DNA of 42,002 nucleotides from a virus. Lineage: Duplodnaviria; Heunggongvirae; Uroviricota; Caudoviricetes. The stretch is from IMG/VR virus record IMGVR_UViG_2563366918_000005, one strand, 5' to 3'. The position numbers and the translations under genes are program-made. The notes under the pieces are model-generated. The model had not been told where the DNA came from and did no database searches. It was given only the letters and a program-made list of their open reading frames with translations. Position 1 is the stretch's first letter. Each line of letters starts with the position of its first letter. Positions 1,150 to 26,050 of the stretch are shown piece after piece.

Positions 1150-1860
1150 GCCTATAAGGCTCTCTTACCAGCCGCGCCCTAACAGGCGCACACGATCTGA
1201 CATTTGCATCCAACTTCGTTACTTACGGCCCGTAAACGGGCTGCCCGGATAGGGAATCGATAACTGCTCTCCCATTTTATCCTCTTCAAGCTGGTGCTTT
1301 ATGTAATCCTGTATCTTCGCCGTGTTCTTACCCACTGTATCGACGTAGTACCCTCTGCACCAGAACTCCCTGTTCCTGTATTTGAATTTCAAATCACCAA
1401 ACTGCTCGTAAAGCATCAGACTGCTTTTCCCTTTCAGATATCCCATAAACCCGGATACGCTCATTTTAGGCGGGATCTCCACAAGCATATGGATATGATC
1501 TGCACAGCATTCAGCTTCCAGAATCCGTACGCTTTTCCACTCACACAGCTTTCTCAAAATACTGCCTATTGCTCTACGCTTCTCTCTGTAGAACACCTGT
1601 CTTCGGTATTTTGGCGCAAAAACTATGTGATATTTACAGTTCCATCGGGTGTGCGCTAAGCTCTTTTCGTTCCCCATTGGGACCCCCTTTTGATTTCTTG
1701 TTTGACACTTGCAGTTGCCAGACCGCAAGGTGTTTTAACAAATCAAAAGGGGTTTTAATAACTGGCTCAAAGCTGAAAGCTTTCCGGAACCCCCAGCCTA
1801 GCTGGGGGTTTTCTGTGCACAAAAAACCCTCTGTAGTAACAGAGGGTTTTGTTCATTCAT
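1150..1860 (-). mobile_element. IS200 (IS200/IS605 family), approximate boundaries
   Basis: The tnpA ORF matches IS200 TnpA almost residue for residue from memory (HTRWNCKYHIVFAPKYRR...HIHMLVEIPPK). Two characteristic left-end hairpins are at 1786-1812 (aacccccagc-ctag-ctgggggtt) and 1822-1850. Ends are placed by the ~707-bp element length, not seen as repeats. Confidence 0.6.
1219..1677 (-). CDS. tnpA: IS200 transposase TnpA (HUH Y1 transposase)
   Basis: 152 aa starting MGNEKSLAHTRWNCKYHIVF. HxH motif HIHMLVEI. Catalytic Y near the C-terminus. Confidence 0.85.
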   Translation of the reverse strand: MGNEKSLAHTRWNCKYHIVFAPKYRRQVFYREKRRAIGSILRKLCEWKSVRILEAECCADHIHMLVEIPPKMSVSGFMGYLKGKSSLMLYEQFGDLKFKYRNREFWCRGYYVDTVGKNTAKIQDYIKHQLEEDKMGEQLSIPYPGSPFTGRK

Positions 1861-3406: not shown

Positions 3407-3809
3407 CGTCTTTTCTCCCCGGAATTAAATCGCGTGGATTGTCTGAACGGTGGTAGAGCCATATACCAATACGCACAGCGACAATTGCTGACACGAATGC
3501 GCCAGCAGAGAAAACAATACCTTTTTCAAAAGAGTCCTGCGTGATGGTAGGGATCAGGCTGGCTATGCCGATAAGAATTGATGCTGCTGGTTTGTAGAAA
3601 AGAAGTCCGCAGAGAAAGCTGAGCATCGACAAGAGTACGCGACGACGAATTGGATACTCTACCGCAGAGGTAACAAAAATTACCGCGCCAGCAAGAGCAC
3701 CGAGCGCCACCTCTGGCGGAACGCCTACGATAACCGCAGCAAGAGAGCTCACACTAAGCCATTGATTTAAAGACTCAGTTGTTATGTTAACCGACATAGC
3801 ACACACCAT
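3393..3809 (-). CDS. Holin-like membrane protein (start at 3809 or 3797)
   Basis: 3-4 TM segments (LAAVIVGVPPEVALGALAGAVIFV, LLSMLSFLCGLLFY, ILIGIASLIPTI, VFSAGAFVSAIVAVRIGIWLY). First gene of the lysis cassette. Confidence 0.45.
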   Translation of the reverse strand: MVCAMSVNITTESLNQWLSVSSLAAVIVGVPPEVALGALAGAVIFVTSAVEYPIRRRVLLSMLSFLCGLLFYKPAASILIGIASLIPTITQDSFEKGIVFSAGAFVSAIVAVRIGIWLYHRSDNPRDLIPGRKDDGNA

Positions 3810-3972: not shown

Positions 3973-6579
3973 TTATTTCCTGCAAACTCCAGATGATGTT
4001 AATCCATCAAAAATAACCTGCACTCTGGCAATAACAACATCAACTCCAGAAGTCGTTTCACTTGCATAACCAAGTTTTATTTTAGATACAATATCCTGAG
4101 TAAGTTCAGATATTTCAGTTTCTGCAATGTTACCAGAGGCCATGTGATTATCGTATGCCATAGAATGAATTCCATTATTGACATCGATTGAACTAGTATG
4201 TTTGTGAAAAATAGATGGGTTTACCTGAAACGAATTTGAACCGATAAGATCAGAATATACTCCATTCATCACTGCAGTACAGCGTGGAATATTATTATCG
4301 GTTATTGTCATATGCAGACGGTTACCAGTTAACCCCTCACCAAGTGTGACATAATACGCCAATTCTCCACCTGCATATTGTTTCCCCTCAACAATAACAG
4401 TAATCCCTCTTAATTTCTGATTAGCTAGCAAAAACTTATTACTGTCTATATAGCATTTATTTGCGGAACCAAAAACAGCCCCTTCTAAAATATCTGATGA
4501 ATAGGAATAAATAAGGTCACCTGAAACAAAGGAAAGAATATCAGATACGTTTCCTTTTTTAGATAAGTTAGGAGAATAGCTATTAACTATTTCATATTGT
4601 CCTGTGATAAAATCAAGGTAAACGCCATCAGTTTTCATCTCTTTAAAGAAAATGCTATTAAAGCATCCATCAAGAACCGGTGGATATATTCTAGAGCTTG
4701 CATAAGCTGTTGGGTGATTCTTATTATTACCACTACCAGGCGAATAAACATCTTCGTTAGTCATTGACTTTTTAAGCTTAACAGGAATCATCGGCTGCAT
4801 ATCAATTTTGCAGTTCCCTGAACCACCGATGCGAGGATAAAATAAACCACCAAACCTTACAATATTACTACTGAATAGTATTTCGTTATCGTTAAGTGTT
4901 ATCTCAACGAAGTTTCCAATAAGTTTAAATTCAACTGAAAACAAACCAAGTGGAGCAGATAATTTAACAATATTGCGCATAAAAACACCTACAGTCCCTG
5001 TTGATGCAGTATAGTGTGTGGTTTCAAAGGCAGAGCCTGTATATTTCAAGTTAATGAAATTATTATGGTATGAAGACAATTGAAATTGAATCCCAGAACT
5101 AAGGATTTCAATATCTACAAATTGAATCCTTACGGAGTAAGCATATGATAAATCTTCATATTCATAAGGCAATGTAACATCTTTTGAAATAGTTGCCCTC
5201 ACATAATTACCAGAAACCACATCAATCCCATCACGTACAGCATTAAAGTAACGATTAAAATCAATAAGCCCAGCGCCAACATACTGCGCATATGACCGAG
5301 TCCATCCTGCCATTGCGTTTCGTCCATTCTGAGCTTCTAAACTGCTAAATTCAGAGTCACTTGTGGTACTTGATGGGAGGATATTTGTACAAAAAATAAT
5401 TTCAGGCATTGAAGTAATATCATTCAGTTCAGCCATCAATTTAAAAAAAGTTTTCTGCGGGAAGTTACCAACATCCCAACCATCTCCGTCATTCATGCCA
5501 AAAGCAATAATAACAACATCAGGGTTAATATCACGAATGTAATCAATCCAGCGTCTGTTCGTGTCTGAATACCATGGGTACTGTGAGTTATAAGAAGTAA
5601 TTGCTGGTGTATCTTTTCCAAGGTCATAGTACCTCATTCCACCAATTGCTCTGTTAAATAAAGTAGAACTTGGGAATTTCTCTTGCAAAACTCTCTTAAG
5701 ATGAGCGGCAAAAATGCTTGATCGATCCACTGTGCTTATATTATATGGGGCACTTAAGCTGTCACCAACTAACACTATTTTTGAGTTAGGCCTTGATAAT
5801 CTCTCAAGTGTTTTAGATGTGACTAAACTGCAGGAATTAATGAACTGAGTACTATTTAGCATCTGTTCAAGTGTATCACCAAATCTGGTACCAACGTATG
5901 ATGATCCGTTGACACTTGCTAGCTTAAGGCATAAATCAGCAGTATCTGTAATTGAAAAAATAGGAACAGGACGTCCTAAACTGTCATACCCCTGAATTGA
6001 GTTTGCCCTAGAAGATGCTGATGCCATTTCGCTTACTATCTCAGGGAAGCGGAGTGTTTTAGATATGTTGCTGTTAATAACTCCTTTGATAGATGAGTCT
6101 GTATATTTCTTCGTGGAAGCGTCCTGAGGAAATAATGGATCATCAAGGTTACGAATACGATTGCCGAGTGCATCGTAGTAAGTGGCACTAAATGATGGTT
6201 TACGAAGAGCCAGCCGAGCCATGCTTTTGACTAACTGGATCAGCATCGTTAGCTTATCAAAAGCATCCTCATGCACTTCCGCAAAGAACTTACCCTGATT
6301 GCGCAGATCAGTTTCCTGTGTAACCGGTAGCTCTCGTGATATAGAAATCTTATAGCCATTGGCCAACGCCTTCGACAATATTACATTTCCACCATTGTAT
6401 CCTCCGGCCCCGGTAACTATATAATCAGTATCAAGAGTCAGTACGGTGATATTTTCATGAATATCAACAACCTGCACAATCAAATCAGATTTATTGAAAA
6501 CCCTAAAGGCATACGGAAACGATGTCGTAACGCCGTTACCGGTGTATTCGTTGTGGTCAACTTCGGTTGAGACCGTCAT
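3973..6579 (-). CDS. Tailspike: epsilon15-type N-terminal particle-binding domain, divergent central part with SGNH/GDSL esterase motifs, AT-rich C-terminal domain
   Basis: N-terminus MTVSTEVDHNEYTGNGVTTSFPYAFRVF matches the epsilon15 gp20 tailspike N-terminus from memory. Internal VLVGDSLS (GDS block) and FGMNDGD (GxND block) are typical of SGNH hydrolases. GC content drops markedly after the first ~350 nt. Confidence 0.7.
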   Translation of the reverse strand: MTVSTEVDHNEYTGNGVTTSFPYAFRVFNKSDLIVQVVDIHENITVLTLDTDYIVTGAGGYNGGNVILSKALANGYKISISRELPVTQETDLRNQGKFFAEVHEDAFDKLTMLIQLVKSMARLALRKPSFSATYYDALGNRIRNLDDPLFPQDASTKKYTDSSIKGVINSNISKTLRFPEIVSEMASASSRANSIQGYDSLGRPVPIFSITDTADLCLKLASVNGSSYVGTRFGDTLEQMLNSTQFINSCSLVTSKTLERLSRPNSKIVLVGDSLSAPYNISTVDRSSIFAAHLKRVLQEKFPSSTLFNRAIGGMRYYDLGKDTPAITSYNSQYPWYSDTNRRWIDYIRDINPDVVIIAFGMNDGDGWDVGNFPQKTFFKLMAELNDITSMPEIIFCTNILPSSTTSDSEFSSLEAQNGRNAMAGWTRSYAQYVGAGLIDFNRYFNAVRDGIDVVSGNYVRATISKDVTLPYEYEDLSYAYSVRIQFVDIEILSSGIQFQLSSYHNNFINLKYTGSAFETTHYTASTGTVGVFMRNIVKLSAPLGLFSVEFKLIGNFVEITLNDNEILFSSNIVRFGGLFYPRIGGSGNCKIDMQPMIPVKLKKSMTNEDVYSPGSGNNKNHPTAYASSRIYPPVLDGCFNSIFFKEMKTDGVYLDFITGQYEIVNSYSPNLSKKGNVSDILSFVSGDLIYSYSSDILEGAVFGSANKCYIDSNKFLLANQKLRGITVIVEGKQYAGGELAYYVTLGEGLTGNRLHMTITDNNIPRCTAVMNGVYSDLIGSNSFQVNPSIFHKHTSSIDVNNGIHSMAYDNHMASGNIAETEISELTQDIVSKIKLGYASETTSGVDVVIARVQVIFDGLTSSGVCRK

Positions 6580-6683
6580 GTTAAATCTCCAGATAGTCGC
6601 AGCACCCGTTGCGCCGCATATCTGGTTATTCTATTACCTGAAAAACCATATATGTATAGAAAGACTATAAATACCAATAGATA

Positions 6684-6698
6684 TTACCTTTATGGTAA
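6684..6698. promoter_or_regulatory. Dispersed palindrome copy 1: TTACCTTTATGGTAA (perfect arms; extended ATTACC..GGTAAT)
   Basis: Divergent region between tailspike and the LexA-controlled genes. Confidence 0.6.
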
Positions 6699-6735
6699 TT
6701 TGCAAAACGTGCTGGATAGCAAACAAATTATTTGA

Positions 6736-6755
6736 TACTGTATAAATATACAGTT
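6736..6755. promoter_or_regulatory. LexA (SOS) box TACTGTATAAATATACAGTT overlapping the promoter of the 85-aa gene
   Basis: CTGT-N8-ACAG with an AT-rich centre, near-identical to the TACTGTATATATATACAGTA consensus. Sits 20-40 nt upstream of SD GGAG (6763) and ATG (6775). A TTGATA -35-like hexamer is at 6732. Confidence 0.75.
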
Positions 6756-6774
6756 ATTGCATGGAGAAGATAAG

Positions 6775-7032
6775 ATGCAGCGGTATCACTATCCACTGGA
6801 AGACGGATTTACCGAAAGGATTCACACGCCGGGAGGCGTCAGGTCACTGGTGGAGGGATCGCACTTGATGAAATTACTCCGGGATCTCGATAAGGATGGA
6901 TTTAATGTCGATGGCCCACTTGCCGAACTGACTGCACTGATTAACTACGTCACCAGCTCACAGATGTCTATGCGGGATCTGCAAACACATCTCGACTATT
7001 GTGCCGAACAATTACGAAAACAAACCAGATAA
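6775..7032 (+). CDS. Small protein (85 aa) paralogous to the C-terminal domain of the downstream Bro-N/antirepressor-like protein
   Basis: SD GGAG 8 nt upstream. IHTPGGVRSLVEGSHLMKLLRDLDKDGFNVDGPLAELTALINYV..RDLQTHLDY aligns with IHSPSGVLGLTENSLLMNLLNQLQEDGHDVSGAAAELTTMFCYI..RDIQTHAEY of 7347..8039. Confidence 0.6.
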   Translation: MQRYHYPLEDGFTERIHTPGGVRSLVEGSHLMKLLRDLDKDGFNVDGPLAELTALINYVTSSQMSMRDLQTHLDYCAEQLRKQTR

Positions 7033-7063
7033 GGTTTGCAATTACCAAGTGGAGTGCTTATAT

Positions 7064-7078
7064 TTACCTTTGAGGTAA
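7064..7078. promoter_or_regulatory. Dispersed palindrome copy 2: TTACCTTTGAGGTAA, nested in a larger inverted repeat GGAGTGC(7051-7057)/GCACTCC(7088-7094)
   Basis: Perfect arms. Confidence 0.6.
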
Positions 7079-7106
7079 ATTTACATCGCACTCCTCTTGT
7101 GCCATA

Positions 7107-7192
7107 GTAATCGGGCACTGGCAAAATCCAGTGCCGGGATTGGTCTCCCGGATTACTACAGAGGCACATATGCCGCATAAGCGGTTTTTTTT
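7107..7192 (+). terminator. Multi-hairpin structured element ending in a T-tract (attenuator/terminator between the 85-aa gene and the ant-like gene)
   Basis: Outer stem gtaatc(7107-12)/gattac(7151-56). Inner 8-bp hairpin ggcactgg-caaaat-ccagtgcc (7114-7135). Small hairpin ggga..tccc. Then ccgc-ataa-gcgg plus T8 (7172-7192). Confidence 0.45.
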
Positions 7193-7346
7193 ATGTGTAA
7201 AGCGCACCTATTCTATGGTGGGCTGTGTGGGGGCACCGAAAGGTGCGCCGGGTTCCTTTGTAGCCGGTAAGACCAACTCTGCACAGTTCACCACCATCTG
7301 ATTGGTCTCAGCGGTGGTGATTAACCTAACTACAAAGGTGATCGCC

Positions 7347-8039
7347 ATGAATACCAAACCTTCCATCTTTTCCTTTGAGTCATCCTGCCAGATCCGTATG
7401 TTCATGATTGACGGAGAACCTTGGTTTGTCACCAAAGATGTGTGCAATGCTTTGAATATTGATGTTACACAAGCGAGAAAACTTGATAAAAAAGGCTGGA
7501 ACAAAAAGGGGCTGTATTCAATACAGACCCCTGGTGGAATACAAGAACTATCCATCGTTTCAGAATCAGGTCTCTACATCCTTATTCTGCGTTGCAAAGA
7601 GGCAATGACTGAGGGAACGAGAGCATTCAGATTTCTTGAATGGGTTACAGGCGAGGTTCTTCCTCAGATCCGCCGCACCGGAAGTTACATTAAAAACTCG
7701 CTACCGCAGGAAGAACGCATAAAGATGGTTGCCGACCAGGTAGCCAACGCCACGGCGTCAGCAGTAATGCAGGCGATGAAGATAGAGAACAAAACCTACA
7801 ACGCCCCGCTGAAGCCCGGCTACCGCAGCCTGATTCATTCCCCGTCTGGTGTTCTCGGCCTGACGGAGAACTCACTGCTGATGAATCTGCTGAACCAGTT
7901 ACAGGAAGACGGGCACGACGTATCGGGCGCGGCGGCGGAGCTGACCACCATGTTCTGCTACATCGTCGGTGTGAGCAAATGCCTGCGTGATATCCAGACG
8001 CACGCGGAGTACATCAACGACAAAGCAGGGTTCTTCTGA
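7347..8039 (+). CDS. Bro-N domain antirepressor-like protein (Ant/KilA-N family)
   Basis: SD aaggtga upstream. N-terminus FSFESSCQIRMFMIDGEPWFVTKDVCNALNI is the Bro-N/AntA signature. Its position next to the tailspike mirrors P22 immI (ant). Confidence 0.65.
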   Translation: MNTKPSIFSFESSCQIRMFMIDGEPWFVTKDVCNALNIDVTQARKLDKKGWNKKGLYSIQTPGGIQELSIVSESGLYILILRCKEAMTEGTRAFRFLEWVTGEVLPQIRRTGSYIKNSLPQEERIKMVADQVANATASAVMQAMKIENKTYNAPLKPGYRSLIHSPSGVLGLTENSLLMNLLNQLQEDGHDVSGAAAELTTMFCYIVGVSKCLRDIQTHAEYINDKAGFF

Positions 8040-8104
8040 CGGGCGGCGGCACAGGGATGTGCCTTTAAATAATTCTGTACAGATTGCAGGTGAATAGCTT
8101 ACTA

Positions 8105-8119
8105 TTACCTCACGGGTGA
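8105..8119. promoter_or_regulatory. Dispersed palindrome copy 3: TTACCTCACGGGTGA (1 mismatch)
   Basis: Between ant-like gene and the 179-aa gene. Confidence 0.45.
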
Positions 8120-8156
8120 TCCATAGCGATTAGGCACCGATACAGGAGGAGCCCAC

Positions 8157-8189
8157 ATGAGAAAATTTGACGAGTACGAAGGCGTTTAA
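8157..8189 (+). other. 10-codon upstream ORF (MRKFDEYEGV) with strong SD AGGAGG
   Basis: aggagg at 8145-8150, ATG 8157, stop 8187-8189. Lies ~20 nt before an intrinsic terminator. Confidence 0.3.
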
Positions 8190-8208
8190 CATTCGGATAG
8201 TTTAATGA

Positions 8209-8231
8209 CGGGGCCATTAGGCCCCGTTTTC
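8209..8231 (+). terminator. Strong intrinsic terminator/attenuator 18 nt upstream of the 179-aa gene SD
   Basis: cggggcc-atta-ggccccg 7-bp GC stem followed by tttt. Confidence 0.65.
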
Positions 8232-8248
8232 ATGTCTGGAGACAGTTT

Positions 8249-8788
8249 GTGTTAAGTGAAGAAATGCAATTTGCCATGGCTGTGGCTCAAATCGTAAGTG
8301 CAGTCGCGGTTTCGCTTGGCTTGTTCATAGCTATCGCTACTATTATTTATAATGTAAATACAGCGAGAAAAGTACACACTTCAGTATTCCTTGGTGAAAG
8401 CAGGTTTGATGTAGATTATAAGAAAGGCCTATCTACTATGCGCCGCATTCACGAATCGAACAAATCATTCCGCTCTTATATGTATCCAAGCAATGGGCAG
8501 GCTGATCTTACGGATGAAGAAAAGACAGAGAAGAGAGAAATAATTTACTGTCTAGGTTTCTACGAACGCATGGCTGTGAGCGTGAAGCGGAAAACTTATG
8601 ATGAGACCATGATTAAGGAAGTATTTTACAGCTCCGTTGTAAATAACTATCAGATTGCGCTACCTCTTATACAAGCCATTAGAGAAAAAGAAAACATAAA
8701 CACATATTTTAAAGAATATGAATGGTTGGCCACACGATGGAAGGATTGCCCATTGAAGGATAAATCCCCGTGGTACAAGTTTTGGTAA
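8249..8788 (+). CDS. AT-rich single-pass membrane protein (N-terminal TM, cytoplasmic domain); moron, candidate superinfection-exclusion/abortive-infection factor
   Basis: GTG start with SD ggaga 7 nt upstream (alternative ATG at 8264). TM FAMAVAQIVSAVAVSLGLFIAIATIIY. Markedly lower GC than its neighbours. Sits in a sieA-like position of a P22 immI-like block. Confidence 0.55.
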   Translation: MLSEEMQFAMAVAQIVSAVAVSLGLFIAIATIIYNVNTARKVHTSVFLGESRFDVDYKKGLSTMRRIHESNKSFRSYMYPSNGQADLTDEEKTEKREIIYCLGFYERMAVSVKRKTYDETMIKEVFYSSVVNNYQIALPLIQAIREKENINTYFKEYEWLATRWKDCPLKDKSPWYKFW

Positions 8789-13850: not shown

Positions 13851-16360
13851 TGCGGAATATCTCCGGAGAATCTCTGACGCTTCTGTGTCAGATCAAGAAC
13901 AACAGGAGAACCATCATCTTTCAGCAGATAACCAGTACCAAGTTTCACCAGGTACTGACTATCGCCGTAACTTTGCAAACCATACTGACCAGGCGGTGTT
14001 TTTATCCCGGTGCCGACAACTTGTTCATTCCAAGCCTGATTAACCTGCTTATCGAATTGCTCTGCAGACATTCCCCACGGCAAAAGAACATTCCCCATTC
14101 CGTTATAGTCATGCACGCCACCTGTAGCTACGTTAACAGCCTGTTTCCAGATATCATTGTCAATTTCGCCTGATACCACGCCTTTTTTCGCCATCACACC
14201 AGCGTAATAGTCCTTTGCGATCTCGTATGCCATTGATGCCCCCTGAGCATCACCAGCAAATGCATCCTTCACCATGTCAGAAAACTCAAGGCGAAGATCA
14301 GCATCTTTAGGCATCGGAATACCTTTCGCGTCATCAGTACCTTTACGAGCCGCCGCGCCAGCAAGAATTGTCTGCGCAGCGGTTTCAGGAGACACGGAAA
14401 CATCCGGATTAAACCAGTTTTTTTCTGCCAAAATACCACCAGGCTTGTCCATCAGTATCCCGGCAACGGCAGCAGATGGAGCGTTGGCACTGATCTGCTG
14501 TAGTGCTGACATATACACCTGCCCACCACCAGTGCTCTGCCTGATGGTATCGAGATATGCTGCCTGTTGGGAAACGGGCGCATCACGAAAGAAAACACCG
14601 ATCTGATTGGCCTCGTCTTTGGAAAAGAACGTCAGTGGAGTGCCATATGACTTAGCAAGGTCACTGACCTGAGCAGCACGCAAGGCAACGCTCTGTCCAA
14701 AGTTATCCTTATTGCTCATGTCGATAGGCTTTGCCTGTCCGGCGGCAAGAGAGAACTGTACAGGATCAGCCTGTCTCTGCTTTATCACCTGACTTGCAGC
14801 CGACACAACGTTGTCATAAAGAGCGGCTCGTGCCGCATAACCCTCCCCTGTCTCACCAGTATCCGGGCGTAATTGCTCAACATATGCTGTAATGCTGCTT
14901 GTCGGCATGTTGCGGAAAGAGCCTATATACTGTCCGGCGATTTGCGTATTTCTGAACTCGGTATATCGCAGGTTTCCTTCTCTGACTCCATAAGCTGCAA
15001 TAAAATCAGCCTCACCAGGTGGGTTAGGAAATTCAACGCCACGCATATACGCAGCTGTCGCATCGCGAACTTGGCTGTCAATCATCGTTTTATATTCAGC
15101 CTGCTGCTGCCGACGCAGTTGATCCGCCTGTCGCATAAAACTTGCCTGCGCCTCAGGAGATGCCGCATCGAATGCTGCATTACCGGTATAGCGTTTGGTG
15201 TTGGTTGGAATTGTTGATAAACCAAGTGCTGCACTGACACCAGCAGTTAACTGCTGATCACTGTATGGCTGGCTACCGTTCTCATGATGGATAATGGCTG
15301 CACAAAGCGCCTTCAGGGTATCAGGATTAGATGCATCGAGAGGCTCATCAGCAGAAACGCCAAGTTGTTCGCACACTGCTTTGATATACGACATAGTGTC
15401 ATTTTTATCAGTAGGCGGTGCCCAGCGATTAATTATCTCGCTGACGGTATCAATACCCTGCCTCTGATACGACATCAGGTTCCGCCCTAATGCACGAATC
15501 CCGTGTTCAGGTGTTTCGAATTTAGCAAATCGACCATCATCACCGGTCTGGCCTACCCACGGATTGGTTTTGCTGTATTCGAGATTTCCTGGGTTATTGT
15601 TGCGTATGCCACGGGCACGCTCGGAAGAATCACTATCTGCTACAGCACGGCGAGCTCCAGCAGCAGTATCACTTAACTCGCCATTACTTTGGATGAATGC
15701 GGTCGCATTGTTTGCCGACCACTGGGACAATGCTGCATCAGCAACCTTCTCTTTAAACTCGATTTTCTTGGCCTGGATTTGCTCGTCGCTCCAGCCATGC
15801 GCAATGCCGTAATCCTCAATTTGCTGGAAAGTTTGCTTATTAGCCAATACGTATGCGGCGTTGTCGCCATACAATGCTGCGGCATTTTTACCATTGTTCA
15901 GCAGCGTCGCCTGAAACTGGCCTTCTTCGTAGGCATTTATTTGCCATATCTCGTGCCGCCCGGCCTGCGTAGTGAACTGAATGCGCTGCTGCTGCGCCTG
16001 CTGCATGAAAGCATTACGAGCCTGTTCATCCGGCAGCGACATAGCCAGTTGCTCGACCTGGGCATCAAACTGCTGCGTATACTCCTGACCTTTTCCAATA
16101 GCATTTTTCCCTTTCAGGTTAAGCAAACCTGTTTCAGGGTTATTCAGCAGATCGCTGCTTATCTGACTGAGGTTAAGGGATGCCTCCTGTGCCAGAGCGA
16201 TATTGGCACGCTGTTTTGCCTGACCAAAAACATCAATTGCCTCTGTCCCTGCCCGAACAAAAGCATCACCAATACCAGGCTGAGAAAACGTCTGCAAGCC
16301 TGCTGACTGAACGCCACGGCTCTGAACCTGACGGCCGGATACTGTTGGTACGACTGGCAT
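13847..16360 (-). CDS. Internal virion/ejection protein, ~837 aa, with possible cell-wall-hydrolase-like segment (GIRNNNPGNLEY motif)
   Basis: Start set at the Met with strong SD ggagg (ATG 16360, overlapping the upstream stop), not the ORF-track 16435. Enzymatic assignment is tentative. Confidence 0.45.
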   Translation of the reverse strand: MPVVPTVSGRQVQSRGVQSAGLQTFSQPGIGDAFVRAGTEAIDVFGQAKQRANIALAQEASLNLSQISSDLLNNPETGLLNLKGKNAIGKGQEYTQQFDAQVEQLAMSLPDEQARNAFMQQAQQQRIQFTTQAGRHEIWQINAYEEGQFQATLLNNGKNAAALYGDNAAYVLANKQTFQQIEDYGIAHGWSDEQIQAKKIEFKEKVADAALSQWSANNATAFIQSNGELSDTAAGARRAVADSDSSERARGIRNNNPGNLEYSKTNPWVGQTGDDGRFAKFETPEHGIRALGRNLMSYQRQGIDTVSEIINRWAPPTDKNDTMSYIKAVCEQLGVSADEPLDASNPDTLKALCAAIIHHENGSQPYSDQQLTAGVSAALGLSTIPTNTKRYTGNAAFDAASPEAQASFMRQADQLRRQQQAEYKTMIDSQVRDATAAYMRGVEFPNPPGEADFIAAYGVREGNLRYTEFRNTQIAGQYIGSFRNMPTSSITAYVEQLRPDTGETGEGYAARAALYDNVVSAASQVIKQRQADPVQFSLAAGQAKPIDMSNKDNFGQSVALRAAQVSDLAKSYGTPLTFFSKDEANQIGVFFRDAPVSQQAAYLDTIRQSTGGGQVYMSALQQISANAPSAAVAGILMDKPGGILAEKNWFNPDVSVSPETAAQTILAGAAARKGTDDAKGIPMPKDADLRLEFSDMVKDAFAGDAQGASMAYEIAKDYYAGVMAKKGVVSGEIDNDIWKQAVNVATGGVHDYNGMGNVLLPWGMSAEQFDKQVNQAWNEQVVGTGIKTPPGQYGLQSYGDSQYLVKLGTGYLLKDDGSPVVLDLTQKRQRFSGDIPQ

Positions 16361-25973: not shown

Positions 25974-26050
25974 GTGGCATTAGCTCAGTTGGACAGAGCA
26001 ACCGCCTTCTAAGCGGTTGGTCGCAGGTTCGAATCCTGCATGCCACGCCA
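25974..26050 (+). tRNA. tRNA-Arg (anticodon UCU), phage-borne
   Basis: Hand-folded cloverleaf: acceptor GTGGCAT/ATGCCAC, D stem GCTC/GAGC, anticodon stem ACCGC/GCGGT, loop CTTCTAA (UCU), T arm GCAGG-TTCGAAT-CCTGC, discriminator G, CCA encoded. Confidence 0.8.

Follow-up and report, generated by a model that had tools for sequence, protein, structure and literature searches.

A predicted LexA-controlled antirepressor gene beside a predicted RNA-controlled Bro-N antirepressor gene: a probable induction and anti-immunity locus in an epsilon15-like prophage of Escherichia coli

The block of DNA that adjoins the tailspike gene (3973-6579, minus strand) of the prophage studied here raises the question of how its lysogens would be induced, having in mind that the repressor carries no autocleavage domain, and of what the structured region and the Bro-N gene found further downstream contribute to this. 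The window, that is, the whole 42,002-nucleotide stretch of the IMG/VR record IMGVR_UViG_2563366918_000005, is an epsilon15-like (Uetakevirus) prophage of E. coli. We read the block at 6684-8039 as the induction and anti-immunity locus of this prophage, in which two known modules stand in tandem, and we give this reading a probability of about three in four. Its description as a close copy of the switch of Salmonella phage SPC32H, followed by a second and larger antirepressor under a known pair of small RNAs, is largely correct, and most of the locus is already understood. The support gathered in this analysis is at the sequence level (homologies, RNA family membership, complementarity and covariation, and motif enrichment), and the experimental support comes from other phages: LexA, Ant and Rep in SPC32H, the activation of anrP by IsrK in Gifsy-1, and the push towards lytic growth given by the Bro-N protein of ZX5. 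To an earlier, sequence-only reading of the same DNA, the analysis adds that the Bro-N protein ends in a second Ant domain, predicted operators for Rep at both promoters of the block, and C4 alleles that differ between sister phages.

Table 1. Features of the locus and of the repressor region, with positions in the window.
Feature	Position	Strand	Sequence and evidence
IR1, predicted Rep/Cro operator	6684-6698	.	TTACCTTTATGGTAA; perfect TTACC-N5-GGTAA in the divergent tailspike-ant intergenic region
LexA (SOS) box	6736-6755	+	TACTGTATAAATATACAGTT; over the probable ant promoter, 20-39 nt upstream of the ATG at 6775
ant, small antirepressor (85 aa)	6775-7032	+	SPC32H Ant orthologue; GGAG 8 nt upstream of the ATG
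IR2, predicted Rep operator	7064-7078	.	TTACCTTTGAGGTAA; abuts the -35 of the isrK promoter
Predicted isrK promoter	7080-7108	+	TTTACA, 17-nt spacer, TG-extended CATAGT; predicted start near 7115 (consensus scan)
isrK-family sRNA	7115-7191	+	RF01394, 74.7 bits against a gathering score of 50
a1, decoy copy of the C4 target in isrK	7140-7146	+	TTGGTCT
b1, decoy copy of the C4 target in isrK	7156-7164	+	CTACAGAGG
C4 antisense RNA	7211-7298	+	RF01695, 78.6 bits against a gathering score of 45; full length (1-87)
C4 b' loop	7255-7263	+	CCUUUGUAG
C4 a'	7270-7276	+	AGACCAA
a2, C4 target on the ant2 leader	7302-7308	+	TTGGTCT; pairs with a' (AGACCAA)
b2, C4 target on the ant2 leader	7330-7338	+	CTACAAAGG; pairs with b' (CCUUUGUAG); includes the Shine-Dalgarno AAAGG
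ant2 (230 aa)	7347-8039	+	N-terminal Bro-N and C-terminal second Ant domain (residues 149-225)
Predicted operator cluster between rep and the divergent cro-like gene	35731-35793	.	sites at 35731, 35762 and 35779
rep, prophage repressor	35849-36433	+	SPC32H Rep orthologue, without S24 domain
Predicted operator pair	36491-36567	.	62 bp apart, flanking a PL-like promoter (TTGACA-17-AATTAT) downstream of rep

As shown in Table 1, the near-consensus LexA box that had been pointed out upstream of position 6775 is present, with two mismatches to the 20-mer consensus, a perfect CTGT-N8-ACAG core and a spacer made up only of A and T. It was the sole match in the 42 kb at up to three mismatches, and none of 100 shuffles contained one. 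Scoring of the site with a LexA weight matrix had been proposed as well; with a matrix built from 21 E. coli SOS boxes, it reached 26.4 bits (known sites, 15.1-27.9), this being the top value of the window, followed by a site with 12.8 bits. The position of the box, with its core at -37 from the ATG, is the same in phiV10, TL-2011b, HEMP4 and Tyrion, and the box is aligned in SPC32H. In SPC32N, a natural variant of SPC32H, the equivalent box has ACAG changed to AAAG, one of only two differences in the region. For the ant promoter itself the hexamers are weak and the consensus scan called none; our best guess is TAGCAA (6717-6722) as the -35 and TATAAA (6741-6746) as the -10, the latter lying within the LexA box.

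The 85-aa protein that had been placed downstream of the box is 87% identical to the product of the gene annotated as ant in SPC32H (tblastn), and its residues 2-84 matched chain E of PDB 5D50, "Anti-repressor protein", with an E value of 3.5e-46. It also matches phrog_450, and no family was found for it in the Pfam and NCBIfam searches. A large protein search with this Ant detected only close enterobacterial relatives of 85-86 aa, all of them without Pfam domains. The repressor had been described as a protein with two HTH modules and without an S24 domain, and the Pfam search agrees with this: HTH_3 was placed at residues 106-147, the N-terminal part gave a weaker HTH-like match, and Peptidase_S24 was not found. 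It could be aligned over its full length with chain A of 5D50, "Repressor" (residues 1-190, E=4e-42), and with 5D4Z_A, which corresponds to the C-terminal domain (E=4e-20).

SPC32H reportedly uses antirepression through LexA, Ant and Rep, the structures being PDB 5D50, which is the complex of both proteins, and 5D4Z. Citing papers describe this Rep/Ant antirepression, and reviews, with reference to Kim and Ryu 2013, state that the repressor of these Salmonella phages is inactivated by an Ant under the control of LexA. Together with the Ant and Rep orthologues and the matches to 5D50, they support the core proposal of the sequence-only reading, that is, that induction would proceed through a LexA-derepressed antirepressor and not through self-cleavage of the repressor, as in the experimentally characterized system of the same phage genus. 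That proposal had left the inducer as one or more antirepressors; its predicted control by LexA stands, and the trigger would be the 85-aa protein rather than, in the first place, the Bro-N protein. Host LexA, sitting on the box in a lysogen, would silence ant, DNA damage would remove LexA and Ant would be made, and then an Ant tetramer would bind the C-terminal domains of the non-cleavable Rep tetramer, by homology to 5D50, pulling Rep off its operators in such a way that lytic growth would begin.

The Bro-N gene, also recognized before, encodes a protein with a clear PF02498 match (residues 16-106, E=1.6e-13, 51.5 bits against a cut-off of 25.6) and further matches to the PHROG antirepressor families phrog_130 and phrog_1760. 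Its C-terminal part is a second Ant domain, 43% identical to the 85-aa Ant (E=8e-17) and with 22 invariant residues in common with the small Ants, and the protein matched 5D50_E with an E value of 4.9e-14. The Bro-N-Ant fusion is kept in nine epsilon15-like phages. In phiV10 the Ant2 domain is truncated, so at least one viable phage can do without Ant2. Where it is complete, Ant2 would presumably also inactivate Rep.

The ZX5 study and most annotations treat the Bro-N protein as the working antirepressor, which would leave the 85-aa ORF as an accessory or a non-functional leader gene. The database names follow this view, the Bro-N protein being entered in GenBank and RefSeq as "anti-repressor" and the 85-aa one as "hypothetical protein", and overexpression of ORF4 of ZX5 was indeed pro-lytic, with the prophage titer going from 10^9 to 10^6 and rep transcription down by 75% (PMC9782041). 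However, it is the 85-aa protein that is nearly the crystallized Ant of SPC32H, and it is the small gene that the LexA box directly precedes; moreover, SPC32H and epsilon15 have the small gene only, without a Bro-N gene, and phiV10 keeps its small Ant intact. On these grounds the view is hardly tenable, and we take the 85-aa Ant as the trigger.

Between the two genes, an attenuator-like structure had been proposed. The structured region, 7033-7346, is real, but its identity as an attenuator was rejected, having found in it two curated RNA genes, isrK and C4, both above the Rfam gathering thresholds; these matches and the covariation described below point to a small RNA switch acting on the translation of the Bro-N gene. 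The match to the Rfam model of isrK starts at 7115, the predicted promoter in front of it is conserved in alignments of relatives, and an intrinsic terminator is located at 7172-7191 (7172-7185 plus a T run). The fold of the C4 RNA has a z-score of -3.8. The isrK-C4 tandem is found in all 16 related loci, and also in Gifsy-1 and N15. In Gifsy-1 and in three related loci a further Rfam family, c4-a1b1 (RF03163), lies over isrK; in the window only isrK is reported there, since overlapping members of the clan (CL00128) are collapsed. A 28-codon ORF (7215-7301) starts at a conserved AUG inside C4, and in phiV10 and TL-2011b a 2-nt indel alters both the frame and the point where the ORF ends.

A role of the region as the transcription attenuator, or the leader, of one operon running from ant to the Bro-N gene, without trans-acting RNAs, would be in line with the intrinsic terminator that lies between both genes, with the fact that no terminator was found between ant and isrK, and with the strong folding in cis of the read-through RNA, in whose minimum-free-energy structure the a1/b1 of isrK pairs with the a'/b' of C4 (z = -5.1). 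It is nevertheless very unlikely, because both RNAs belong to curated sRNA families, a conserved promoter is found immediately upstream of isrK, the isrK-C4 unit occurs without an upstream ant gene in Stx, APSE, N15 and Gifsy-1 phages, and IsrK acts in trans in Gifsy-1 (PMC4825925). In EC.W1-9 and TL-2011b, ant and isrK stand about 1.1 kb apart owing to an insertion with two opposite-strand genes, so transcriptional coupling of the SPC32H-type and the isrK-C4 modules is not obligatory.

In the small RNA switch, isrK would be driven by its separate promoter (7080-7108) and most of the transcripts would end at the isrK terminator. The RNA that reads through would carry C4. Pairing of the C4 segments a' and b' with a2 and b2, which belong to the same leader, would cover the Shine-Dalgarno of ant2, placed 8 nt before its ATG, and would block translation. 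The short IsrK, with its a1/b1 decoy, would titrate C4 and allow the synthesis of Ant2. As for the sequences involved, a'/a2/a1 and b'/b2/b1 covary three ways across 17 phage loci, with exact complementarity through nine b' and three a' alleles, and a compensating indel between the window and phiV10 keeps the complementarity between C4 and its target. The window, EC.W1-9 and Tyrion carry the a'/b' alleles AGACCAA/CCUUUGUAG, and phiV10, TL-2011b and ZX5 the alleles ACGCCAA/CCUUUUAG.

These alleles bear on what the second module (isrK, C4 and ant2) is for. With odds a little below even, it is mainly a device for anti-immunity or heteroimmunity, as in the immI loci of P1/P7 and P22 and in N15, and not a second stage of SOS induction. 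The C4 of a resident prophage would silence the ant2 of an incoming phage with the same allele, whereas Ant2 would be made by a phage of another allele, which would then overcome, or induce, a resident prophage with the same Rep. It speaks for this function that close relatives carry different, matched a'/b' alleles, as P1 and P7 are generally known to do, and that the repressors of ZX5, phiV10 and phiv142-3 are identical (PMC9782041). In the isrK-C4-ant locus of N15 a LexA box was looked for and none was found, the strong N15 box being elsewhere, and the second module of the epsilon15-like phages has its own predicted promoter and stays whole where the insertion parts it from ant. On the other hand, the homologous locus of Gifsy-1 contributes to induction of the resident prophage (PMC4825925), and a role in heteroimmunity is compatible with a feed-forward role during induction.

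Such a feed-forward role would involve the inverted repeat TTACC-N5-GGTAA. At up to one mismatch it occurs 15 times in the window, where 1.55 sites are expected, and SPC32H has 18 sites for an expectation of 1.0, the sites clustering on either side of rep in both phages. Around rep the predicted operators overlap PL-like and PR-like promoters, the one at 35731 overlapping a minus-strand promoter-like site. Within the block, IR2 is common to the 10 epsilon15-like loci, all of which keep its half-sites unchanged while its spacer varies, and the isrK genes of APSE, Stx, Hafnia, Yersinia and IdasGreatGrand phages have no such repeat upstream. IR1 is kept upstream of ant in phiV10, EC.W1-9, TL-2011b, Tyrion, HEMP4 and SPC32H; with some 40 nt between it and the LexA box downstream, it may serve the divergent tailspike promoter instead of ant. 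From enrichment and position we infer Rep operators at both promoters of the block; the protein that binds the repeat could also be a Cro-like protein or another regulator.

Given the predicted Rep operator at the isrK promoter and the failure to find a terminator between ant and isrK, both the SOS-induced ant transcripts and the loss of Rep would raise IsrK. Ant2 would then act as a reinforcing second stage, and the C4 alleles could add a P1/P7-like specificity against superinfecting relatives. We infer, in this scheme, the binding of Rep to the inverted repeats, the binding of Ant2 to Rep and the feed-forward link itself. Its extension to the epsilon15-like prophages of E. coli, Klebsiella and Enterobacter as a two-stage circuit, in which the LexA-gated Ant would act first and the C4-released Bro-N-Ant2 would then lock induction, with C4 alleles that let Ant2 act across prophages with one Rep, is tentative and on balance doubtful. 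If true, SOS control, repressor feedback and an sRNA sponge would be joined in one 1.4-kb locus.

Sequence matching the locus was found in 542 of 5426 complete E. coli genomes (about 10%), in which the trigger gene is named "hypothetical protein" and the RNA genes are either unannotated or translated as "Ash family protein". The gain is a better annotation and a better forecast of prophage behavior, having in mind that a switch of the SPC32H type predicts SOS-inducible prophages without repressor cleavage, and that a single base change in the LexA box is predicted to be able to render them constitutively lytic, as in SPC32N. The tandem of a LexA-gated Ant and an RNA-gated Bro-N-Ant paralogue could also serve as a compact natural model of the way in which antirepressor dose, antisense-RNA specificity and repressor feedback jointly shape the induction decision and the crosstalk among co-resident or superinfecting relatives. 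Current concepts are extended by these data, not changed.

We compared the locus with known systems. The closest one, that of SPC32H, belongs to the same genus and has in common with the window, besides Ant and the position of the LexA box, a Rep homologous over its full length, the location of ant between the tailspike and virion genes and far from rep, and TTACC-N5-GGTAA repeats both around rep and in the interval from the tailspike gene to ant. By eye, in the 5D50_A alignment, Rep appears more diverged than Ant. SPC32H has ant alone, without isrK, C4, the Bro-N-Ant2 gene and the IR2-controlled promoter, and epsilon15 likewise lacks the second module. In ZX5 (vB_EcoP_ZX5) the locus is the same as that of the window, with a small ant, isrK and C4 preceding the Bro-N-Ant2 gene, and ORF4 is a homologue of the Bro-N-Ant2 protein of the window, 64% identical over the Bro-N part and alike in its Ant-like C-terminus. 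The study of this phage missed the small Ant, the LexA box and the RNAs, and the C4 region was annotated as "ash family protein" (PMC9782041). ZX5 carries the other C4 allele.

The sequence-only reading had also likened the block to immI of P22. The position next to the tailspike gene holds, but membership was rejected, P22_AR_N scoring 17.7 bits, below the cut-off of 30.7, and no small divergent regulator genes of the P22 kind (Arc/Mnt) were found within 6580-8250. With 186 Tum and Gifsy GfoA the likeness drawn here is one of function, that of a LexA-gated small antirepressor.

In Gifsy-1, IsrK activates anrP translation in trans (Hershko-Shalev et al. 2016, PMC4825925). Its isrK-orf45-anrP locus resembles the second module of the window in having an isrK with its own promoter and a leaky terminator, a C4-family element (the orf45/STnc1160 region), an antirepressor-like gene and a/b complementarities, and the "structure A" of that study (PMC4825925) is matched by the cis fold of a1/b1 with a'/b' in the window. 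Unlike the window, the Gifsy-1 locus adjoins the Q gene, away from any LexA-controlled gene, and its mechanism stresses translation of orf45 (PMC4825925), whereas the corresponding ORF of the window (7215-7301) is not conserved in frame. A BLASTP comparison of AnrP with the GfoA candidate (STM2621.1n) and with both window proteins gave no match even at E<=10. The generality of a LexA-gated small antirepressor with a homologous RNA-gated domain was rejected on the lack of similarity between AnrP and the GfoA candidate, and the antirepressor paralogy is therefore specific to the epsilon15-like group.

The RNA switch has its other counterparts in P1/P7 and N15. The window resembles P1/P7 immI, reportedly made up of the c4 antisense RNA, icd and ant, in that a'/b' of C4 pairs with a2/b2 over the ribosome-binding site, an a1/b1 copy lies upstream, an antirepressor gene lies downstream, and specificity is given by allele-specific complementarity. 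The P1 immI operon is also under the primary repressor. By contrast with P1, the window has no clear icd-like gene, its b2 covers the Shine-Dalgarno of ant2 itself, its antirepressor shares with P1 Ant no more than the generic module, and a LexA-gated paralogue lies directly upstream. N15 is like the window in having two routes to repressor inactivation, an isrK/C4-gated antirepressor locus, reportedly the RNA-controlled antA/antB, and a separate LexA-gated one, reportedly AntC. To our knowledge, the antirepressor proteins of these two N15 loci are not paralogues. They are encoded about 11 kb apart, whereas the two antirepressor genes of the window are adjacent and have a homologous effector domain.

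The region 6600-8250 was found to share 91-98% nucleotide identity with temperate podophages of the epsilon15/phiV10 group (genus Uetakevirus), among them EC.W1-9, phiV10, TL-2011b and ZX5. Of 5426 complete E. coli genomes, 542 match it, with at least 80% of the query covered in 139, and several complete E. coli chromosomes hold prophage DNA identical to it. The open reading frames of 85 codons (ant) and of the Bro-N protein (ant2), the repressor gene (rep) and the near-consensus LexA box described in a sequence-only reading were all confirmed at their positions, and are collected in the table with the features found here.

Features of the two antirepressor modules and of the repressor gene
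Feature	Position	Strand	Description
IR1, perfect TTACC-N5-GGTAA site	6684-6698		LexA box lies about 40 nt downstream; kept in every relative, SPC32H included
LexA box, TACTGTATAAATATACAGTT	6736-6755		two mismatches to the 20-mer consensus
ant	6775-7032	+	85 codons; GGAG 8 nt ahead of the ATG
IR2, perfect TTACC-N5-GGTAA site	7064-7078		its end is one base ahead of the isrK promoter -35
isrK promoter-like site	7080-7108	+	TTTACA, 17-nt spacer, TG-extended CATAGT
isrK (RF01394)	7115-7191	+	Rfam, full-length, well above gathering score
isrK intrinsic terminator	7172-7191	+	end of isrK
C4 antisense RNA (RF01695)	7211-7298	+	Rfam, full-length, well above gathering score
ant2 (Bro-N gene)	7347-8039		230 aa
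rep	35849-36433	+	HTH_3 at residues 106-147; weaker HTH-like match at 21-61

The LexA box is the sole site in the window at three mismatches or fewer, and none of 100 shuffles contained any match; just one other CTGT-N8-ACAG occurs in the window, with a G+C-rich spacer. When scored with a weight matrix made from 21 E. coli SOS boxes, whose absolute scores are indicative only, the site reached 26.4 bits, against 15.1-27.9 for the training sites, the runner-up in the window being at 12.8. Three known or expected boxes were recovered with this matrix: upstream of ant in SPC32H (24.9 bits), upstream of dinI-gfoA in Gifsy-1 (25.7 bits) and in N15 (23.8 bits). The window, phiV10, EC.W1-9, TL-2011b and SPC32H can be aligned column by column over the box, the Shine-Dalgarno sequence and the start codon. 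The core of the box lies at -37 from the ant ATG in every relative examined. In 2013 Kim and Ryu reportedly described SPC32N as SPC32H with two nucleotide changes, the one in the LexA box making Ant constitutive. The sequence records agree with this account: they show two differences in the 1055-nt ant region, and one, inside the box, turns ACAG into AAAG and takes the score down from 23.7 to 18.3 bits.

The 85-aa protein is 87% identical to the annotated ant product of the Salmonella phages SPC32H and SPC32N and matches the chain "Anti-repressor protein" of PDB 5D50 (E=3.5e-46), and residues 1-190 of the repressor align to the chain "Repressor" of the same entry (E=4e-42). As summarised in papers citing the SPC32H work, Rep binds palindromic sites as a tetramer, Ant, itself tetrameric, attaches to two Rep dimers and breaks up the Rep tetramer, and the C-terminal domain of Rep serves both tetramerisation and Ant binding. 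A review counts SPC32H with the Salmonella phages whose repressor is inhibited by an antirepressor made as a result of LexA self-cleavage. A domain search found no S24 peptidase domain in the repressor of the window. Since Ant and Rep are a known pair and the box is conserved across relatives, with the SPC32N change pointing the same way, the central proposal of the sequence-only reading, induction through a LexA-derepressed antirepressor, was correct. Such induction is already established experimentally in a congener, SPC32H, whose system is orthologous to LexA box, ant and Rep here (module 1), and from this orthology we are confident that the LexA-Ant-Rep pathway would operate in the window prophage.

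The "attenuator-like structure" placed between the two antirepressor genes was instead found to be two small-RNA genes, isrK and C4. The start predicted from the promoter-like site, around 7115, is the first position of the isrK model. The isrK-C4 tandem was present in all 16 related loci compared (epsilon15-like phages of E. coli, Klebsiella and Enterobacter, and Stx, APSE (aphid symbionts), Hafnia and Yersinia phages), with the RNAs around 20-25 nt apart and a start codon 45-57 nt further on, and also in Gifsy-1 and N15. In one APSE-7 GenBank record, annotations already exist for isrK, C4, the a'/b' regions and the downstream Bro-N gene. Several loci have a match to the Rfam family "c4-a1b1" (RF03163; Weinberg et al. 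2010) that overlaps isrK. Translation of 7131-7301 (plus strand), over the C4 RNA, matches Pfam Phage_ASH (PF10554) with 26.4 bits (cut-off 26), and in the records of ZX5 and Hafnia yong2 the C4 RNA bears a CDS labelled "Ash family protein". As the matching frame differs between the window and phiV10, Phage_ASH may be, at least in part, the translation of an RNA gene.

In C4 the second inner hairpin has the segment b', CCUUUGUAG (7255-7263), as its loop, and b' is exactly complementary to b2, CTACAAAGG (7330-7338), which includes the Shine-Dalgarno AAAGG, 8 nt ahead of the ant2 ATG; the single-stranded a', AGACCAA (7270-7276), is the complement of a2, TTGGTCT (7302-7308). isrK holds copies of both targets: a1 (TTGGTCT, 7140-7146), within the loop of the second isrK hairpin, and, a little further downstream, b1, CTACAGAGG (7156-7164), for which one G-U pair with b' is expected. 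Across 17 loci, nine b' and three a' sequences were found, and with few exceptions the downstream and isrK sites change to match; between the window and phiV10 a compensating 1-2-nt insertion/deletion is part of the change. That the three sites covary is strong comparative evidence for functional pairing of C4 with target and isrK. The immI region of P1 and P7 has the arrangement c4, a1b1, a2b2, the same layout as isrK-C4-ant2. In the predicted minimum-free-energy fold of the window read-through RNA, a1/b1 are paired in cis with a'/b', corresponding to the translationally inactive "structure A" of Gifsy-1 (PMC4825925). In that phage a short IsrK, transcribed from a promoter of its own, turns on translation of the antirepressor-like AnrP by acting in trans on the read-through transcript, and a stable processed RNA, STnc1160, covers the authors' orf45 (PMC4825925), a region that Rfam identifies as a C4-family RNA. 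From the covariation, the P1/P7 and Gifsy-1 arrangement and the cis fold, C4 is read as acting negatively, with IsrK as its decoy. Family membership and covariation make us confident that ant2 translation would be controlled by both RNAs. The outer stem of C4 has a 3' strand, TCACCACC (7288-7295), that is also complementary to GGTGGTGA (7313-7320), between a2 and b2 and invariant in almost all loci, a possible alternative hairpin enclosing a2; its use is beyond the reach of covariation because the sequence never varies.

Residues 149-222 of the Bro-N protein align to Ant residues 2-75 (43% identity, E=8e-17), and residues 149-225 to the crystallised SPC32H Ant (E=4.9e-14), with 22 invariant positions common to three small Ants and seven Bro-N C-termini. 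We are confident in the predicted composition of this protein (Ant2), Bro-N plus a second Ant domain. The fusion was found in nine epsilon15-like phages with the RNA module, being truncated in phiV10, and the proteins encoded after isrK-C4 in the compared loci of Stx, APSE and other phages lack it. No similarity was detected between Gifsy-1 AnrP and the Gifsy LexA-controlled antirepressor candidate, so the paralogy is specific to the epsilon15-like lineage. Overexpression of ORF4 of ZX5, a homologous Bro-N protein, brought the prophage count down from 10^9 to 10^6 and cut transcription of the repressor by 75%, in a study in which the small Ant, the LexA box and the RNAs went unnoticed (PMC9782041). 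Given this effect and the shared domain, it is reasonable that Rep is also a putative target of Ant2.

The repeat TTACC-N5-GGTAA occurs, at one mismatch or fewer, 15 times in the window (1.55 expected) and 18 times in SPC32H (1.0 expected). Window sites are at 3659, 6684, 7064, 8105, 25637, 26254, 29933, 29951, 33410, 33472, 35394, 35731, 35779, 36491 and 36553. In both phages they cluster on either side of rep. Those of the window include a pair that flanks a TTGACA-17-AATTAT promoter just past the rep terminator, with one member overlapping the -10, and a further group whose sites overlap a divergent promoter-like site located between rep and a Cro-like gene. Pairs spaced by 62 bp recur (36491/36553 and 33410/33472 in the window, 33604/33666 and 35972/36034 in SPC32H). 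Position and enrichment fit a predicted operator that Rep would bind, and Cro probably too. The repeat marks most intergenic promoter regions of both phages, beyond the immunity region too, which suggests that one repressor may silence many transcription units, possibly by tetramer bridging. All ten epsilon15-like loci have IR2, its half-sites invariant and its spacer variable, whereas in unrelated phages isrK is preceded by a plain promoter of the TTGAC-17-TATAGT/TATATT type without such a repeat.

There is no terminator between ant and isrK, so SOS-induced ant transcripts should extend into isrK and would enlarge the pool of IsrK (a1/b1), and the isrK promoter should be derepressed once Rep is removed. 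After Ant has acted, each effect would thus promote synthesis of Ant2, as a reinforcing second stage. We are less confident of this cross-talk, and an obligatory link is weighed against by the insert of around 1.1 kb with opposite-strand ORFs between ant and isrK in EC.W1-9 (L002, 1957-2872) and TL-2011b (L004, 3780-4868), by the truncated Ant2 of phiV10 and by SPC32H, without the second module. The main alternative is that Ant2 would serve anti-immunity in superinfection and that, as in P1/P7 and N15, C4 would determine the specificity. In favour of this, sister phages that are reported to have a repressor in common (PMC9782041) carry different matched C4 alleles: E. coli epsilon15-like phages show at least two classes, AGACCAA/CCUUUGUAG in the window (7255-7276) and ACGCCAA/CCUUUUAG in phiV10, TL-2011b and ZX5, with further classes in HEMP4 and Klebsiella phages, a split resembling the P1/P7 heteroimmunity difference. 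This role is compatible with a reinforcing second stage.

Other features of the prophage were also recorded. Directly downstream of the EC.W1-9 and TL-2011b inserts, the operator-like repeat and the isrK promoter are kept. After ant2 comes a DUF4760/phrog_2284 gene of unknown function (8249-8788, plus strand), with a one-mismatch operator-like site, TTACC-N5-GGTGA, upstream (8105-8119); TL-2011b has a YafO-family toxin gene in this position and EC.W1-9 other small genes, so the slot looks like a variable cargo (moron) site. From left to right the window carries lysis genes with an IS200 copy, tailspike, virion genes, terminase, immunity region and integrase. The IS200-like transposase gene (Y1_Tnp; 1219-1728, minus strand) is inserted near the left-end lysis genes, and the STnc490 Hfq-binding RNA of this copy is at 1687-1810 (minus strand, 146 bits). 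The tailspike or tail fibre protein (3973-6579, minus strand) has a GDSL/SGNH esterase domain at residues 271-447, which suggests a deacetylase-type receptor-modifying activity and not an endoglycosidase. A tRNA-Arg gene (anticodon TCT; 25974-26050, plus strand) has a counterpart at the equivalent position in SPC32H.

In the literature searched, we did not find described the tandem placement of the two modules, the Ant domain common to both gene products or a Rep-type operator on the isrK promoter. SPC32H and epsilon15 have the small ant alone. The RNA-gated module (isrK, C4 and ant2) belongs to the C4/isrK family of antirepressor controls of P1, P7, N15 and Gifsy-1, annotated also in APSE. 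N15 (L021) likewise has an RNA-gated locus and a LexA-gated one, but at separate sites: its isrK-C4 tandem (4302-4490, minus strand) is upstream of genes 32-31-30, the antirepressor locus, and its lone strong LexA box (15563-15582) is around 11 kb away, between genes 47 and 48, with no gene annotated immediately downstream. The tandem placement, the shared Ant domain and the predicted Rep operator on the isrK promoter are thus variations on known themes.
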